Shown: positions 13,041 to 60,200 of the stretch, in pieces
Numbering within the stretch: the stretch's first letter is position 1
Layout of the letters: the number at the start of each line of letters is the position of its first letter
Virus record (IMG/VR): IMGVR_UViG_3300031998_000040
Coordinates: 34,345-98,344 of that record
Direction: 5' to 3' (one strand)
DNA from: a virus
Taxonomy: Duplodnaviria; Caudoviricetes
Length of the DNA: 64,000 nt
Translations under genes and position numbers: made by a program
The notes under the pieces: model-generated
What the model was told of the DNA's origin: nothing
The model's database searches: none
The model's input: the letters and a program-made list of their open reading frames with translations, nothing else

Positions 13041-13150
13041 ATAAACGTAACTCAACTCAGCGTAAAGAAAAAATAAAAAGAAAACCAACCACAACGCCAG
13101 CACATCGCAGATGGATGCGTTGCATCGGCCGATACGAAAGGAGCCCCCAC

Positions 13151-14083
13151 ATGATTTACACACGCGCCGCCGCCGCGTTCCTCAACTACTGCCGAGCGTC
13201 CGGCATGACCGCCGCCACCGTGGAGAACCACGAGCGCAACCTCCGCCTGTTCTCCGAGACCGTCGCCCTGCCGGACGCCGACGCCGAGATCACCGTCGCC
13301 CACATCGACGAATACAAATCCCTGCTCCACCTCCGGGGCCTGAAGCAGTCCACCGTCCGCGCCTACCTCGAATCCCTCTGCCTGTTCTTCGCGTGGGCCA
13401 CCGAGCGGAAATACTGCGCGGAGAATCCCTGCACCCCCTCCGCCGTGAAGACCAAAGTTCCGCCCCCCGCGCCGTACAACCATCTGCTCACCCGTGAGGA
13501 AATGGCTGCGCTTCTCTCCCCCGTCTGCCCCAAGGGATGCACGAAGAAACTCTTCAACCGCAACCATGCCATCGTCACCGTGCTTCTCACTTCGGGCCTC
13601 AGAAATTCGGAACTCCGGGAGCTGCGTCTCTGCGACCTGATTCCCTCCGAGAACCGCCTCATCGTCCGCTGCGGCAAGGGCGGCAAGACCCGCTCCGCCC
13701 CCTACCCCCCGGCGGCGCAGGATGCCGTCGCCGCTTGGCTCGCCGACCCGCTCAGGCCGTCTTCGTTGCCCTCTGACGCGATTCTTTTCGGGAAAGGTAC
13801 GAACACCGCCTCGTGGCAGATGTTCAGCAGGACGGAGCTGAGCACGATGGTGGAGCGGTTTACCAAGACGGTGCTGGGAAAGGACTCCGGCGTCCGCACC
13901 CACGCCCTCCGCCACGCCAACGCCAGCTATCTGTGGGACAGCGGCATGAGGATGGAGGACATCCGCGATCTACTCGGTCACAGCGATGTGAAAGTCAGCC
14001 AGATGTATATTTCCCGCCTGCGTCCTCAGACCGCAACCGAATCCGCCACCAATGCGTTCGCGGCTCTGAGCCAAGCGGTATGA
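13151..14083 (+). CDS. Tyrosine recombinase/integrase (XerC/D-like)
   Basis: GLRNSEL, GKGGK, HALRH, LLGH and catalytic Y in SQMY. Confidence 0.93.
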   Translation: MIYTRAAAAFLNYCRASGMTAATVENHERNLRLFSETVALPDADAEITVAHIDEYKSLLHLRGLKQSTVRAYLESLCLFFAWATERKYCAENPCTPSAVKTKVPPPAPYNHLLTREEMAALLSPVCPKGCTKKLFNRNHAIVTVLLTSGLRNSELRELRLCDLIPSENRLIVRCGKGGKTRSAPYPPAAQDAVAAWLADPLRPSSLPSDAILFGKGTNTASWQMFSRTELSTMVERFTKTVLGKDSGVRTHALRHANASYLWDSGMRMEDIRDLLGHSDVKVSQMYISRLRPQTATESATNAFAALSQAV

Positions 14084-14090
14084 ATCAGGA

Positions 14091-14918
14091 GTGATTTCCG
14101 TGAAAGAAAAACTAGACCTCACCGGCAAACAGTTCGGTGATTGGACGGTTCTCTATGAAGAACCGCAGGAAGGGTATGTCAGGAAGTGGCGTTGCCGTTG
14201 TGTCTGCGGTGCCGAGAAAACCGTATATCAAGGTAATCTTACCCAAGGGAAAAGCCACGGATGCGGGTGCGCTGCTCGAAAGCTCACCGGTGAACGAGCA
14301 AGAACGCACGGGAAAAGAAACACCAGGTTATACAATATTTGGGTGCTTATGAGGCGCAGATGCTACGATGAATCCAGCGTATCTTACAAGAATTATGGAG
14401 GTCGCGGAATATCCGTTTGCGACGAATGGCTTGGCCATGACGGATTTCAGCACTTTTGGGATTGGTCCCATGAAAACGGATATAGCGAATCTGCGTCTCC
14501 GAGAGACTGCTCTATTGACAGGATTGATGTAAACGGTAATTACTGCCCTGAAAACTGTCGCTGGATTGATATGCGATCACAGTCCAGAAATAAACAAGGC
14601 ACTCATTGGGTAGAGTTTGGTGGCGAGACAATTTCACTTGCTGAATTTTGCGAGAGATACAACGTCGCTCCTGCTCTAGCAAGTGCAAGATTTCAGCGTG
14701 GGTGGTCCCCTGCCGAAGTCATGTTCTTCCATCCGAAATATCTTCCGAAATTGATTGAGTACAAGGGGGAAACCAGAACACAGCGAGGGTGGGCCAAGCA
14801 CTTTGGAATAGACCACAGAAAGCTCCAGTACCGCTTAAATCATGGGTGGACATTTGAGCAGGCGATAGGCATTGCTCCTCCGCCAAATAGGTACTCCAAT
14901 TCTCAAAAAGGAGATTAA
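14091..14918 (+). CDS. HNH-type homing-endonuclease-like protein
   Basis: LTGKQFG, CRCVCG, YGGRGI.VC.EW, SIDRIDVNGNYCPENCRW; lower GC than flanks. Confidence 0.85.
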   Translation: MISVKEKLDLTGKQFGDWTVLYEEPQEGYVRKWRCRCVCGAEKTVYQGNLTQGKSHGCGCAARKLTGERARTHGKRNTRLYNIWVLMRRRCYDESSVSYKNYGGRGISVCDEWLGHDGFQHFWDWSHENGYSESASPRDCSIDRIDVNGNYCPENCRWIDMRSQSRNKQGTHWVEFGGETISLAEFCERYNVAPALASARFQRGWSPAEVMFFHPKYLPKLIEYKGETRTQRGWAKHFGIDHRKLQYRLNHGWTFEQAIGIAPPPNRYSNSQKGD

Positions 14919-14923
14919 ACACC

Positions 14924-15007
14924 ATGCGCTACCTCGACCGTCTCCGCCCCACCGCCCCGACGGACCACGCCGCCGACGCTTTCGCCGCCCTCCGCGCCGC
15001 CGTCTGA
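14924..15007 (+). pseudogene. Displaced original C-terminus of the recombinase (27 codons, possibly translated)
   Basis: MRYLDRLRPTAPTDHAADAFAALRAAV*; 14/25 identical to recombinase end YISRLRPQTATESATNAFAALSQAV*. Confidence 0.85.
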
Positions 15008-16978: not shown

Positions 16979-17680
16979 TCATTTTCCGTCATCATCCCCG
17001 CGTATGAGCCGCACGATCATCTTGAAGAACCGATAGAGGATGACGCAGATTTCGGCGCGGGTCGCCCCCTGATTCGGCTTGAAGCTCCCGTCCGGGAATC
17101 CCTTGATAATCCCGTTTTCCTGCGCCCATCGGATTTCAGTTTCGGCGTAATGCCCGGTTACATCGTCTACTACAACAGGTTCTGGCTGATAGTTCGGACG
17201 GCATACCCCGACCACGTTCTTGACGCTACGCAGCTTCTTCGCCACACAGCCGCCGTTATATTCTTCTTGCGGAGTTCCCTCCACGCCGGGGGTCGTATTC
17301 CCCTCGATGGTGTACCAAGTCCCGGCCAGCTTGCCTTTCTCGACAACAAGGCCGCAATGCTCCGTGTCGAGTTCGCCGTTCACCTTTTTTCCAGAGAAGT
17401 TCAGGATCAGGATGTCGCCGACCTGAATCTCGGAGTTCGGAACGGTTTGGCCTTGTTCTCGGTAGCAGCGGAGAAGCGTCCGGCACGAAGCGGTCTTACC
17501 GCCGTTGTAGAACGCCATCCGTTCACCGGCCTTGTTAAACCAATAGGCGGGTGCCATAACACACCACGGCTGCCCGTTCACGCCATACCATTCACCGAAC
17601 TTTGTCTGATTACTGTTCGGTGGGAATTCTGTATAGCCGAGGTCTTCCAGCGCCGCGTCAATAACCGCTTGCTTGCTCAT
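16979..17680 (-). CDS. Endolysin, CHAP domain plus SLH domain
   Basis: GQPWC, EHCGLV, TIEGNT; SLH motif GIIKGFPDGSFKPNQGATRAE; AAGGAG 7 nt before ATG17680. Confidence 0.9.
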   Translation of the reverse strand: MSKQAVIDAALEDLGYTEFPPNSNQTKFGEWYGVNGQPWCVMAPAYWFNKAGERMAFYNGGKTASCRTLLRCYREQGQTVPNSEIQVGDILILNFSGKKVNGELDTEHCGLVVEKGKLAGTWYTIEGNTTPGVEGTPQEEYNGGCVAKKLRSVKNVVGVCRPNYQPEPVVVDDVTGHYAETEIRWAQENGIIKGFPDGSFKPNQGATRAEICVILYRFFKMIVRLIRGDDDGK

Positions 17681-18344
17681 ACTCATTCTCCTTATGCCAC
17701 TCATAACCACGGTAGGATTTCAGGTGTCCATTAGCGGCCTGTTGCACACACCAACGGTCATAACCGTGTTTATCAGCTTCCACAGCGGATGCGAAGCGAA
17801 TGATTTCTCCTGTCTGGTTATGAATTCCAATAACCGGGATTGAACGAACCCGTCTGAGTTTTTCAATACCTTCCTCTGACCAGTTCTTTTTCTTCCCTGT
17901 CAGACCAGCAGAAACCCTGAGATTGTGAGTGCCGTAGTTGCAGTTATACTTTGCCGTACACCATTCCAGATTTTCAACACAGTTATTGTGCTTGTTCTCG
18001 TCCTTGTGGTTTATGAACGGTAGCTCTTCTGGATTAGGTATGAACGCTTCAGCGACAAGGCGATGAATCTTCACGTCCTTCCGCACTCCGTTCACGCAAA
18101 AGTTGAGGCACAAATACCCTCGCCGTTCTATCGGCCTGAGGATATGCCAATCACGGTTACGAACACGACCCATGTTGCTGACTTCGTATCTGGTTTCGTA
18201 ACCTTTGGCTGGTCTCCACTCCTCCTGCTCCCCTTGCAGTTCAGGCCACCATTCCGACCAGTATTCGACCCGATTCGACTCAGCCGGGTCTTCGTGTACG
18301 CCCAGCTCTCCCCGGGCGATTTCGATTACTTTTGATAGGCTCAT
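17658..18344 (-). CDS. NUMOD4-HNH endonuclease fused to an endolysin-like N-terminus
   Basis: EEWRPAKGYE..YEVSNMGRVR; IHRLVAEAFIPN; INHKDENKHNNCVENLEW; first ~40 aa resemble the lysin N-terminus. Confidence 0.9.
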   Translation of the reverse strand: MSLSKVIEIARGELGVHEDPAESNRVEYWSEWWPELQGEQEEWRPAKGYETRYEVSNMGRVRNRDWHILRPIERRGYLCLNFCVNGVRKDVKIHRLVAEAFIPNPEELPFINHKDENKHNNCVENLEWCTAKYNCNYGTHNLRVSAGLTGKKKNWSEEGIEKLRRVRSIPVIGIHNQTGEIIRFASAVEADKHGYDRWCVQQAANGHLKSYRGYEWHKENEYEQASGY

Positions 18345-18355
18345 GCTGTCCTCCT

Positions 18356-18745
18356 TTACGGCGGCGTTGTCGTGACCGTCGGGGCGTTCCCCTCAAACAT
18401 GATAACGCCGATGTGCATATTGCCGCTGGCATTTACTAACCGGATGACATTGTTCCCCTGCGGCGTTACGGTCGTACCCGATTGCGAGATCGCCAAAAGC
18501 GTGACCATTTGCAAATCCGAGGTGGACCCGCTGTTAAAAATGTAAAACCCGCTCTTTGCAACGGCGACAGTACCGACGCCGGTAAACGATATCAGCCCCG
18601 TTTTGATGCCTGTCGGAAATACCAGGTAGTATGTGGCATTCGCAGACAGGTTAAACATGGCGGATGCGGATATCCCGCCGATGCCAAGCAGCCCCTTTTC
18701 CTCCGGTACGCCTGGCAGCGGTCGTTCTCCCGTCCCGCTCGCCAT
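18356..18745 (-). CDS. Tail-fibre-associated hypothetical protein
   Basis: Coupled to neighbours; GGAGG RBS; beta-rich. Confidence 0.65.
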   Translation of the reverse strand: MASGTGERPLPGVPEEKGLLGIGGISASAMFNLSANATYYLVFPTGIKTGLISFTGVGTVAVAKSGFYIFNSGSTSDLQMVTLLAISQSGTTVTPQGNNVIRLVNASGNMHIGVIMFEGNAPTVTTTPP

Positions 18746-57645: not shown

Positions 57646-58482
57646 CTAGAACGGCAGCGTTTCCGCATCGTCTTTGTAGTCATACTTCCACGGTTTGTTG
57701 GAGGCGCTTGCGTTCCTTCCCCCGCCGTTCTTCCCAATCCTGTCAAAGACGATTCCGGCATAGTTGCTGGACATGCTCTGCTGTATCGCAGAGATAACGG
57801 CGTCCTCTCCGTATTTTTCAGCGTTGGTCTTGATTTGCGTCACAAGGCTTTTGAGTCCCTGTGGCTTATATGCCTGCCGCTTCTGCCGCTTATAGGTCAG
57901 CCAATCCCGAAGCGCGTCCTGCATTTTCCCGGCGAACTGATTCAATGCTTCCTGCTCCGCCGCCTTGTTTTCCTCACGCGCGTGTGCGCGTGCGTTCTCT
58001 TCTTCAGATACAGATACAGATACAGTATCAGTAACAGTATTTTCTTTGCAGTTGATAGGGTATTGATACCCTATCAACAGGGTATCTGAGTCAACCCCGA
58101 ATTCTTTAAGTTTTTTTGCAATGAAAGCGCGGAATTCAGGGCATTTGATTGAGTGCGCCGCCGTCATTACGCCGGATAGCATCTTCTCCGAAGTAGTCCA
58201 GTTATACTTCGCCCAGTTGACGATCAGCACTTCCTTTGTCTCCCTGCTGTACTGAACTACGCCGTGCTGATGCTCCATGCGATCCAGCAGACGAGTGACG
58301 GAATCCTCGTTGTACCCGGTTTCCCGGCACATCTGCTTCATACTCACTTCGTAGCACCCGCTGATGGTCGTGTGCGGATTCGTCAGAAGGTAGAGATAGA
58401 AATACTTATCTTCCGGGGTAAAGTCATCGTCCACCTTACTGTCCGTCCAAAATGACAGGCTGATATTTCTATATACCGGCAT
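57646..58482 (-). CDS. Replication initiator (replisome organiser)
   Basis: FWTD...FTPEDKYFYLYLLTNPH; upstream of DnaC; internal repeats. Confidence 0.85.
   Translation of the reverse strand: MPVYRNISLSFWTDSKVDDDFTPEDKYFYLYLLTNPHTTISGCYEVSMKQMCRETGYNEDSVTRLLDRMEHQHGVVQYSRETKEVLIVNWAKYNWTTSEKMLSGVMTAAHSIKCPEFRAFIAKKLKEFGVDSDTLLIGYQYPINCKENTVTDTVSVSVSEEENARAHAREENKAAEQEALNQFAGKMQDALRDWLTYKRQKRQAYKPQGLKSLVTQIKTNAEKYGEDAVISAIQQSMSSNYAGIVFDRIGKNGGGRNASASNKPWKYDYKDDAETLPF
58004..58086. repeat. Probable replication origin inside initiator gene
   Basis: CAGATA x3 plus variants; perfect 13-bp inverted repeat GTTGATAGGGTAT-TG-ATACCCTATCAAC (58051-58078). Confidence 0.65.
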
Positions 58483-58488
58483 CGTTCG

Positions 58489-59061
58489 TTACCTCCGCTC
58501 AGAACATTCGCTTGGAACCACAAGATAGCGATTCCCACATTTATCTGTTGCATGAGACTGTCCGCGTTTTATGACAGTGGAGATATACTGTTCATTGCGT
58601 CCGAGATACCGTCCCGCTTGAGAGTAAGAGCGAAATCCCATTTCGTAATCGTTTTCGTCAACAAGCCAGACTTCCTTTTGGAAAGAATCAAACAACCCCA
58701 TCTCAAATCCAAGACGCACGTTTTCAGATAGGCTTACCCATTCGAGGTTTTCTGGTCTGTTGTCGTGGTAATCCCCGTTGATATGATTTACCGTTTCTTT
58801 TTCCATCGGTGGACGTATCCAAGCGGAAGCAATAAGCCTTGAAACCAAATAGGTGTATGGTTTCTTATTCTTCCAAAGCGTCACTCTTTCGTCAGTTCTT
58901 TTGGGTGGTGACTGATGCTTTGGCTTCAAGACACGGACACTCCAATGTCGAGTTCCGTGGCGTACTGACTCAGTAGTTTTCCCAGGTGCAGTACGAATCC
59001 GTCCAAGATTCGACGCTTCGTAGATTCCTTCATATCCAGGAATTGGTTTCCAATCTTCCAT
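58489..59061 (-). CDS. NUMOD4-HNH endonuclease
   Basis: EDWKPIPGYEGIYEASNLGRIR; VNHINGDYHDNRPENLEW; low GC. Confidence 0.9.
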   Translation of the reverse strand: MEDWKPIPGYEGIYEASNLGRIRTAPGKTTESVRHGTRHWSVRVLKPKHQSPPKRTDERVTLWKNKKPYTYLVSRLIASAWIRPPMEKETVNHINGDYHDNRPENLEWVSLSENVRLGFEMGLFDSFQKEVWLVDENDYEMGFRSYSQAGRYLGRNEQYISTVIKRGQSHATDKCGNRYLVVPSECSERR

Positions 59062-59074
59062 GTTTTTCTCCTAC

Positions 59075-59524
59075 TCAGAACGGGAGTTCATCTTCAAGGT
59101 CGTCGTCTTCCGCTTCGTAGAACTGCGGCCCGTCCGCCGTCGGTTCCCCGGCGGCCTTTGCGGTCTGCGCCAGCGCAGTAGCCGCCTCGCCCATGTCCGG
59201 CACGACGCTGGGGCTGATGCAGAATCCAAGGTTCAGGTCCCAGTAGGTCTTCCCGTCGTATTCACGGCTCTCCATGCGTCCAACGGCCAGGATCGGGTCT
59301 CCCCGTTGAAAGTCCTTGGCGTAGCCAACCACGCCTTTGAGAAAGGATTTGCAGTCGATGTATTTCTTTTCTCCGTTCTTGTCGGCCCCGGCGCAGATGC
59401 CAAACTTGACGAAGTAGCCGCCGCTTTTGGTAGAGACGATCTGCGCGTCGCGGCTGACTTCTCCCCACACAAGCCTGTCCGTCTCGCTCAGTTTTACGAC
59501 GCCGCCCAAAGGAATGTATGCCAT
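59075..59524 (-). CDS. ssb: Single-stranded DNA-binding protein
   Basis: OB-fold pattern; acidic tail EDELPF. Confidence 0.8.
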   Translation of the reverse strand: MAYIPLGGVVKLSETDRLVWGEVSRDAQIVSTKSGGYFVKFGICAGADKNGEKKYIDCKSFLKGVVGYAKDFQRGDPILAVGRMESREYDGKTYWDLNLGFCISPSVVPDMGEAATALAQTAKAAGEPTADGPQFYEAEDDDLEDELPF

Positions 59525-59540
59525 TTTGTTTTTCCTCCCG

Positions 59541-60200
59541 TTACCAGTGCTCAGGGTATCTGGTGAAGTAATGCCCGCCGACGTGCAGGAAGATTTCCCC
59601 ATACAGCGGCGTGGTGGCGAAGAATACCACGTCCGGTTCCAGAATCGGCGTCTCTGTGATCGCCAGCCGCACCGCTTCGTACTGTGCATCTGTCGGCGTG
59701 ATGTCGCTCAGTTCCAGTGCCCCGCCGCTGGGGGCAAACTGTCCCGGTTGGTACAGCACGTCGTAGATAGTGTTCGGGAACTGGTCGCTCAGGACGCGGT
59801 TAAACACCACCTCAATTACCAGCCGCATCCCAAGCAGCCCCTCTCCGCGTGCTTCTCGCCACGCCAGACGAGCCAGAAGCTCAATATCTTCTGGGGTAAT
59901 GTCGATACCTTTCCAGCGTTCTGCGCTGTCCTGCGCGATTATGGGGCGGTCTACGACGATTTGCTTTTCCACCGTGACCGGGACTTCCACCGTCACGAGC
60001 TGGGGGACGTTGACGTATTCCGTGACGGTTTCCGTTACGGTCTTATTCACATAAACGATCTCCGGCTCCGGCGTTTCCAACGGCTCCGCCGCTTTCGCTG
60101 TCATGGGTGCATTGAGCAATTCCAAAAGGGCGAAGCACACGACGGTCATGACCGCCAGCCCAAGCAGGAAGCAAATCTTTCTCACAGCGATCTTCACCAT
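59541..60200 (-). CDS. SleB/Hydrolase_2 cell wall hydrolase with N-terminal membrane anchor
   Basis: LARLAWREARGE, V.FNRV.S..FPNTI.DV.YQPGQF, GGHYF. Confidence 0.88.
   Translation of the reverse strand: MVKIAVRKICFLLGLAVMTVVCFALLELLNAPMTAKAAEPLETPEPEIVYVNKTVTETVTEYVNVPQLVTVEVPVTVEKQIVVDRPIIAQDSAERWKGIDITPEDIELLARLAWREARGEGLLGMRLVIEVVFNRVLSDQFPNTIYDVLYQPGQFAPSGGALELSDITPTDAQYEAVRLAITETPILEPDVVFFATTPLYGEIFLHVGGHYFTRYPEHW

Follow-up and report, generated by a model that had tools for sequence, protein, structure and literature searches.

A candidate homing cassette that replaces the 5′ end of a phage endolysin gene

How can a homing endonuclease gene sit at the catalytic-site codons of a phage endolysin gene with neither an intron nor an intein around it, and what then becomes of the lysin? 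The question is raised by a minus-strand locus at 16979–18344 of a 64,000-nucleotide (nt) stretch of tailed-phage DNA (Caudoviricetes), hereafter the window, which corresponds to bases 34345–98344 of a 98,344-nt IMG/VR virus record (IMGVR_UViG_3300031998_000040) rated complete. Two open reading frames (ORFs) overlap there: a 228-amino-acid (aa) fusion ORF (18344..17658, stop codon 17658–17660), in which a leader resembling an endolysin N-terminus runs into a NUMOD4-HNH nuclease, and a 233-aa endolysin ORF that starts at ATG 17680 in a frame other than the HNH frame. From sequence comparisons across related phages, we consider it likely that the locus holds a homing cassette that replaces the 5′ end of its target gene without intron or intein. 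The cassette would probably comprise an I-HmuI-like NUMOD4-HNH gene together with a portable lysin ribosome-binding site (RBS), start codon and first ~47 codons, its site being the PWC codons of a CHAP/NlpC-P60 endolysin. The first 40 resident codons remain upstream, fused in-frame to the nuclease; cleavage and current mobility are what we infer from this arrangement.

The fusion ORF and the rebuilt endolysin

The nuclease core (codons 41–228 plus the stop, 17658..18224, minus strand) was assigned from Pfam, PHROG and an I-HmuI alignment. Pfam places NUMOD4 (PF07463) at residues 41–82 of the fusion ORF (E 4.4e-10, above cut-off) and HNH_3 (PF13392) at residues 92–134 (E 3.5e-7), with no assignment for residues 1–40, and the whole protein belongs to PHROG 59 'HNH endonuclease' (E 1.2e-45). 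Residues 42–215 align with residues 2–167 of I-HmuI (PDB 1U3E; E 8e-15), including an HKD.NK.NN..NL.W block that is invariant across 20 relatives. Since this alignment opens at residue 42, a complete I-HmuI-like enzyme begins at residue 41. The core is also compositionally foreign, with a G+C content of 47.8% versus ~56% in the flanks, while the leader, at 56.7%, has the composition of the resident genes.

What precedes the enzyme matches the N-terminus of an endolysin, as the initial annotation had proposed. A search for lysins that begin like the leader and continue into PWC, using residues 1–42 of the fusion ORF as query against a collection of 5.8 billion proteins, retrieved 65 protein clusters (E 7.6e-12 to 1e-2, identity up to 79%) of 217–265 aa, mostly 217–239 aa, nearly all of them CHAP+SLH proteins. 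The similarity spans Met1 to QG(E/Q)Q and stops exactly where intact lysins go on with the catalytic PWC, and these 65 HNH-free lysins have an intact site at the junction. On this match, 18225..18344 (minus strand) represents the displaced original lysin 5′ end (codons 1–40), in-frame with the nuclease. The alternative of an ordinary NUMOD4 leader fails, because residue 2 of I-HmuI falls on ORF residue 42 and because leaders of distant NUMOD4-HNH proteins (≤50% identity) are mostly short and unrelated: 74 of 120 have fewer than 10 aa, and none of the 120 is lysin-like. The more distant IMG/VR HNH loci inspected (L009–L021) are ordinary free-standing genes in non-lysin contexts.

No in-frame start codon was read between codon 1 and the NUMOD4 domain. 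Without a start codon of its own, the nuclease must be translated from the original RBS and ATG of the lysin. This RBS, AAAGGAGG (18350..18357, minus strand), lies 5 nt upstream of ATG 18344 and now serves the HNH fusion ORF, in agreement with the earlier proposal that the nuclease had taken over the strong signal of the operon. The upstream 129-aa gene, on the same strand, ends at 18356, and 11 bases separate its end from the fusion-ORF start. Late, lysis-timed expression of the nuclease can reasonably be expected from the gene position; a promoter and terminator scan gave a site count no higher than in shuffled sequence.

The lysin restarts within the 3′ end of the nuclease gene. A 23-nt overlap (17658..17680, minus strand) encodes the HNH C-terminus (..ASGY and the stop) and the lysin start (MS.QAVI) in two frames, and the restarted gene has an RBS of its own, AAGGAG (17688..17693, minus strand), read within the last HNH codons (a conserved K-E) and located 7 nt upstream of the lysin ATG. 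The overlap had been noticed in the initial annotation, and the AAGGAG is kept in all six HNH-linked loci described below. In the alignment with L001, an HNH-free relative, sequence is conserved from the AAGGAG point onward. The leader and the downstream lysin N-terminus align with each other (13 of 33 identities, E 1e-4 as a single comparison), and both align with lysin N-termini, so that two diverged copies of one gene end flank the HNH ORF.

Allele-discriminating columns delimit the replacement lysin 5′ end carried by the cassette as codons 1–47 (17540..17680, minus strand), with the PWC catalytic Cys codons at 17561–17569 inside it. The earlier proposal that the switch lies where PWC should follow is therefore right for the leader, whose match ends exactly before PWC, and falls short for the replaced segment of the lysin, which runs to about residue 47, seven past the Cys. 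The resident remainder (16979..17539, minus strand), assigned from Pfam, PHROG and the structural model, encodes the rest of the NlpC/P60-CHAP catalytic domain, a linker and an SLH wall-binding domain (17051–17167, Pfam E 4.8e-12). The Pfam match to CHAP is weak (20.3 bits, under the cut-off of 26). The 233-aa protein falls in PHROG endolysin families, its AlphaFold model (mean predicted local distance difference test score, pLDDT, 87) finds the NlpC/P60-CHAP structures Ly7917, CwlO and LysK CHAP in the PDB with Foldseek, and Cys40 and His108 are invariant in 42 lysins. By homology and model, the protein is a CHAP/NlpC-P60 cysteine-peptidase endolysin with SLH wall binding.

The imported N-terminus appears to be an integral part of this enzyme. 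Over lysin codons 9–37, which lie outside the overlap, the proportion of nonsynonymous differences (pN) between loci is 0.06–0.3 versus 0.5–1.0 for synonymous differences (pS), a pattern that indicates purifying selection. In the AlphaFold model, residues 1–30 form helices packed on the catalytic domain (pLDDT ~91). Resident codons 48 onward continue directly from the imported codons, so that the gene still yields a full-length lysin, imported in its 5′ part and resident in the remainder.

The N-terminus that travels with the nuclease

The same arrangement recurs in other phages. Five further loci carry an HNH–lysin pair with the 23-nt overlap (L008, L023–25, L026–28, L029–31 and L032–33), and their upstream genes are unrelated, which places them in different phage backgrounds; with the window, L008, L023, L026, L029 and L032 make up the six HNH-linked lysin loci compared here. 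Close relatives of the nuclease core form 17 protein clusters (57–84% identity) with intact HNH ORFs and conserved catalytic motifs, and 16 of them carry a lysin-type leader in-frame, directly before the E-E-W that opens NUMOD4. The exception, P0080, has a 5-aa leader not recognisably derived from a lysin, while a more distant protein (P0090, 52% identity) also has a lysin-type leader. More than one lysin subtype is represented among the leaders, a GWDGVP(WC) type being one of them, and some leaders even keep PWC. At the other end of the nuclease, a ..YExASGY C-terminus, which is the alternative reading of the RBS, ATG and first codons of the downstream lysin, is present in 18 of 20 aligned HNH proteins and lacking in the two most distant rows.

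Leader length varies widely among these proteins: about 40 aa in seven, including that of the window, 25 aa in another seven, and 23, 17, 7 and 2–3 aa in one each. The lengths are interleaved on the HNH-core tree, with ~40-aa leaders on the deepest branches, and the long leader therefore looks ancestral and shortening recurrent.

The two N-terminal copies have different affinities. Residues 1–37 of each of the six HNH-linked lysins are closest to those of other HNH-linked lysins (70–89%), while for the catalytic and C-terminal parts the nearest neighbours are HNH-free lysins with the old-type N-terminus, apart from one, P0067, a close relative of the window lysin. The columns that separate the two allele types span residues 3–47, and from residue 48 the residue distributions overlap. 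In triplet tests with parents picked by whole-protein identity, the affinity switches at 47/48 in five of the six loci (Fisher p 3e-5 to 3e-4), at a breakpoint chosen post hoc, after inspection of the same alignment. On the lysin-body tree the HNH-linked state needs five changes; an approximately unbiased (AU) test of a single clade of the six bodies was not significant (p 0.085; log-likelihood 69 lower), so that one origin is not formally rejected. With this caveat, the comparisons support an in-gene N-terminal copy of foreign origin that moves together with the HNH gene, and a displaced copy that is native.

A pair of loci gives the empty-site comparison that the initial annotation had suggested. 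L029, which is filled, and L034, which is HNH-free, are colinear up to the junction: their upstream genes share 78% DNA identity, and the intergenic bases and lysin codons 1–25 are shared. The two diverge exactly at the junction, and similarity returns in the lysin body. The HNH gene is thus present in one locus and absent from the other at one fixed site.

Several HNH-free lysins bear on the history of the two copies. P0044, the lysin with an old-type N-terminus whose body is closest to that of the window, lies in a different genomic context. P0067, from the window-phage relative L001, has an imported-type N-terminus; L001 is 96% identical to the window in downstream DNA and 97% in the catalytic domain, and the similarity of L001 to the window sets in 13 nt upstream of the lysin ATG. 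P0069 (L003–L006; gene start L003:4001), also HNH-free, opens with seven residues of the old type, and from there to residue 47 it matches the imported type; the protein may descend from a recombination of the two N-terminal copies that removed the nuclease. Exchange within one genome may have occurred as well: in L026 the displaced and imported N-termini share an identical TKYGAAYG (L026:3001–3782), absent from other imported N-termini, possibly by gene conversion between the two copies.

Other unusual features were observed in further contigs. In related phages, reverse-transcriptase genes (Pfam RVT_1, 281–348 aa) adjoin tail-fibre-like genes a few genes before the lysin (L001:2941–3786; L024 and L025:1–581). 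They are probably diversity-generating retroelements, and in L001 the reverse-transcriptase gene stands where the window has the HNH cassette. A 92-aa ORF at L038:1059–1337 joins an old-type lysin N-terminus (39 aa, to QGQ) to the C-terminal part of a GNAT acetyltransferase at the same point as the HNH-cassette site, and low-GC, host-like DNA follows; the join may stem from rearrangement where the DNA is prone to break, or the 1.5-kb contig may be a misassembled chimera. P0194 (50 aa) also leaves lysin sequence at the cassette junction point.

Proposed mechanism and alternatives

In the mechanism that we propose, the nuclease would be made from the late lysis-operon message via the lysin's own start, and would nick or cut uninvaded lysin alleles near codons 40–47. 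Cleavage is placed there because no other stretch is both missing from the old copy and altered in the new. The break would be repaired from the invaded genome and the cassette copied in; homology would be provided on the left by the displaced 5′ piece, now the leader, and on the right by the lysin body (codon 48 onward). The invaded allele would be immune, its old copy being truncated at the site and its imported copy different (VMALAYW-type versus VAFLWW-type). Leaders of different lysin subtypes meeting the nuclease at the same point would be expected, because each invasion would keep the recipient's own 5′ end. The leader could then erode by in-frame deletions, tolerated while start and frame persist, and later loss of the nuclease would yield lysins that keep the imported N-terminus, of which P0067 and P0069 may be examples.

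Of the alternatives, the one that survives best is a passive relic, in which one ancient illegitimate recombination put a free-standing HNH gene and a foreign lysin 5′ end into the lysin, the product then spreading by descent or module exchange with no homing today. Several observations weigh against an active cassette and agree with this account or leave room for it. All filled loci are old, with 65–78% identity at the DNA level; we found no near-identical pair of filled and empty loci that would document recent homing, and no empty site for the window phage's own lineage, for whose upstream 129-aa gene IMG/VR and the JGI metagenome contigs gave no relative. The AU result is compatible with one origin of the HNH-linked bodies, L026 has no significant switch in the triplet test, and the 47/48 breakpoint has the post hoc character given above. 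Imported-type lysins without HNH exist (P0067 and P0069), so that the direction of change, gain or loss, is one that we infer. A relic would, however, have to accommodate nuclease ORFs that stay intact with conserved catalytic motifs in 17 clusters, lysin bodies that are discordant with their N-termini in five of six backgrounds, and leaders of different lysin subtypes, GWDGVP(WC) among them, that join at one point. Because no recent homing event is documented, we leave the relic a small but real share of the probability.

A second alternative is that the 40-aa leader is kept for a function, tuning the level or timing of the nuclease or acting on the lysin, and is not a by-product of insertion. 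It draws on the fact that the window leader retains every N-terminal residue conserved in intact lysins and that ~40-aa leaders persist on deep and shallow branches alike. The deletion series makes such a role unlikely, because leaders of 25, 17, 7 and 2 aa stand on equally intact nucleases. The leader is also poorly ordered in the model of the fusion protein (pLDDT 43–62; the equivalent segment reaches ~91 in the model of the lysin), and between the L029 leader and the intact L034 N-terminus pN/pS is ~0.8, a value that rests on only 23 codons and is consistent with relaxed constraint. Taking these points together, we regard a functional leader as improbable.

Judging relaxed constraint in the leaders from conserved columns was rejected as uninformative, because the 65 intact lysins were found by exact-word matches to the same N-terminus and their first 15 residues are identical by selection. 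These clusters (P0001–P0065) are each <90% identical overall and share the first 15 residues while their bodies diverge to 50–60%, and the striking N-terminal conservation is partly a search bias from exact-word seeding.

Splicing fares worse still. A group I or other intron, with the HNH ORF in-frame to exon 1, would join codon 40 to PWC and make the second N-terminus redundant. In the 40-aa class the two halves would indeed join in-frame into a plausible lysin, and introns are known in the lysin genes of several Gram-positive phages. Rfam, however, matched nothing in the window region with a threshold of E ≤ 1, nor in five related loci with one of E ≤ 0.1, and only ~110 nt separate the HNH stop from PWC, a space filled by a coding, conserved and selected N-terminus with its own RBS. 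Leaders of 25, 17, 7 and 2 aa break exon continuity and cannot splice to a working lysin. The intron that the initial annotation had kept in view as the competing explanation is thus very improbable. An intein is ruled out as well: the HNH frame closes with the stop at 17658–17660, and the lysin begins anew at its own ATG, in another frame.

Relation to known elements and wider meaning

The closest parallels to the proposed 5′-end replacement come from eukaryotes. In fungal mitochondria, mORFs make 'gene hybrids', as in atp6 of Allomyces macrogynus and in atp6, atp9, cox2 and nad3 of Glomus (PMC3630166). As in the phage locus, an endonuclease ORF lies inside a coding gene with neither intron nor intein around it, and one end of that gene is present twice, in diverged versions on either side of the ORF. 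The version within the gene arrives with the ORF from a foreign source and has displaced the native one, and in some cases the ORF is in-frame with the host gene. The fungal elements differ in replacing the 3′ end, in using LAGLIDADG or GIY-YIG endonucleases and in residing in organelle genomes, whereas in the phage the 5′ end (RBS, start and 47 codons) appears to be replaced and the displaced native start to translate an HNH nuclease. With every homing event, the WHO elements of Torulaspora and Lachancea yeasts put a new 3′ end on FBA1 (PMC7282813). They share with the proposed phage element homing into a coding gene, the swap of an end for a cleavage-resistant version, the lack of splicing and displaced fragments that stay as relics. 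They are, however, eukaryotic and nuclear, act at the 3′ end with intein-like endonucleases, and have experimentally shown allele-specific cleavage, whereas in the phage such cleavage is proposed.

Among phage elements, I-HmuI of the Bacillus phage SPO1, an intron-encoded NUMOD/HNH nicking homing endonuclease, shares whole-enzyme homology and domain order with the lysin-associated nuclease. It differs in lying within a self-splicing group I intron of a DNA polymerase gene, whereas the lysin locus has no detectable intron and would use gene-end replacement. Free-standing phage homing endonucleases and mobE in nrdA of the Aeromonas phage Aeh1 also home without introns and with flanking co-conversion (PMC10448857, PMC2988022), but they lie between genes or split a gene into two working polypeptides, while the lysin has a second version of one end that takes the place of the first. 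In a 2023 survey of homing endonucleases in phages (PMC10448857), the settings described are introns, inteins, free-standing genes and a single case of a split gene. We found no example of gene-end replacement in phages in the full-text literature, a coverage that leaves out most subscription journals. What would be new to gene-end replacement, as far as we found, is a phage as host, a nuclease of the HNH/I-HmuI family, the 5′ end as the end exchanged, and the takeover of the target's start codon.

A second locus of the same phage, ~3 kb from the lysin, looks like a 3′-end form of gene-end replacement. At 13115–15007 (plus strand), a tyrosine integrase gene (13115–14083) is followed by a 275-aa ORF (14091–14918) and then by a 27-codon ORF (14924–15007). 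The 275-aa ORF has no Pfam match and belongs to PHROG 374/3377 'HNH endonuclease' (E 2e-64), and the 27-codon orphan duplicates the C-terminal end of the integrase (14 of 25 identities, E 2e-7). These genes are arranged alike in L001, whose DNA is 96% identical here.

Besides 17658–18344, three places in the virus record match the lysin-associated HNH protein. A second NUMOD4-HNH gene of the window (58489–59061, minus strand; 190 aa) is 32% identical to the lysin-associated one and free-standing between a 204-aa ORF (59075–59689) and a 278-aa ORF (57646–58482). It was rejected as a parallel case, its N-terminus being ordinary.

We lean, by a modest margin over even odds, towards a general view that introns and inteins are not the only means by which phage HNH homing endonucleases reside in important genes: a third would be insertion at catalytic-site codons, accompanied by a portable gene end immune to cleavage. 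Two such cases, with unrelated HNH genes at opposite gene ends, would then occur in this 98-kb phage, at the 5′ end of the endolysin and the 3′ end of the integrase, and the lysin clade would record invasion, start-codon capture, stepwise leader erosion, and nuclease loss that leaves the imported N-terminus behind.

The proposal makes a concrete prediction of the cleavage site, the codons just after the catalytic Cys, and the layout might serve as a natural design for marker-free cargo insertion into an essential phage gene. It would explain chimeric endolysin N-termini and the odd gene calls of 'HNH with lysin-like N-terminus' in gut-phage metagenomes, and lysin phylogenies would better omit the first ~47 codons. 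If true, it would give homing endonucleases a splicing-independent way to occupy phage coding genes, the mirror image of the layout seen in fungal mitochondria and WHO elements.

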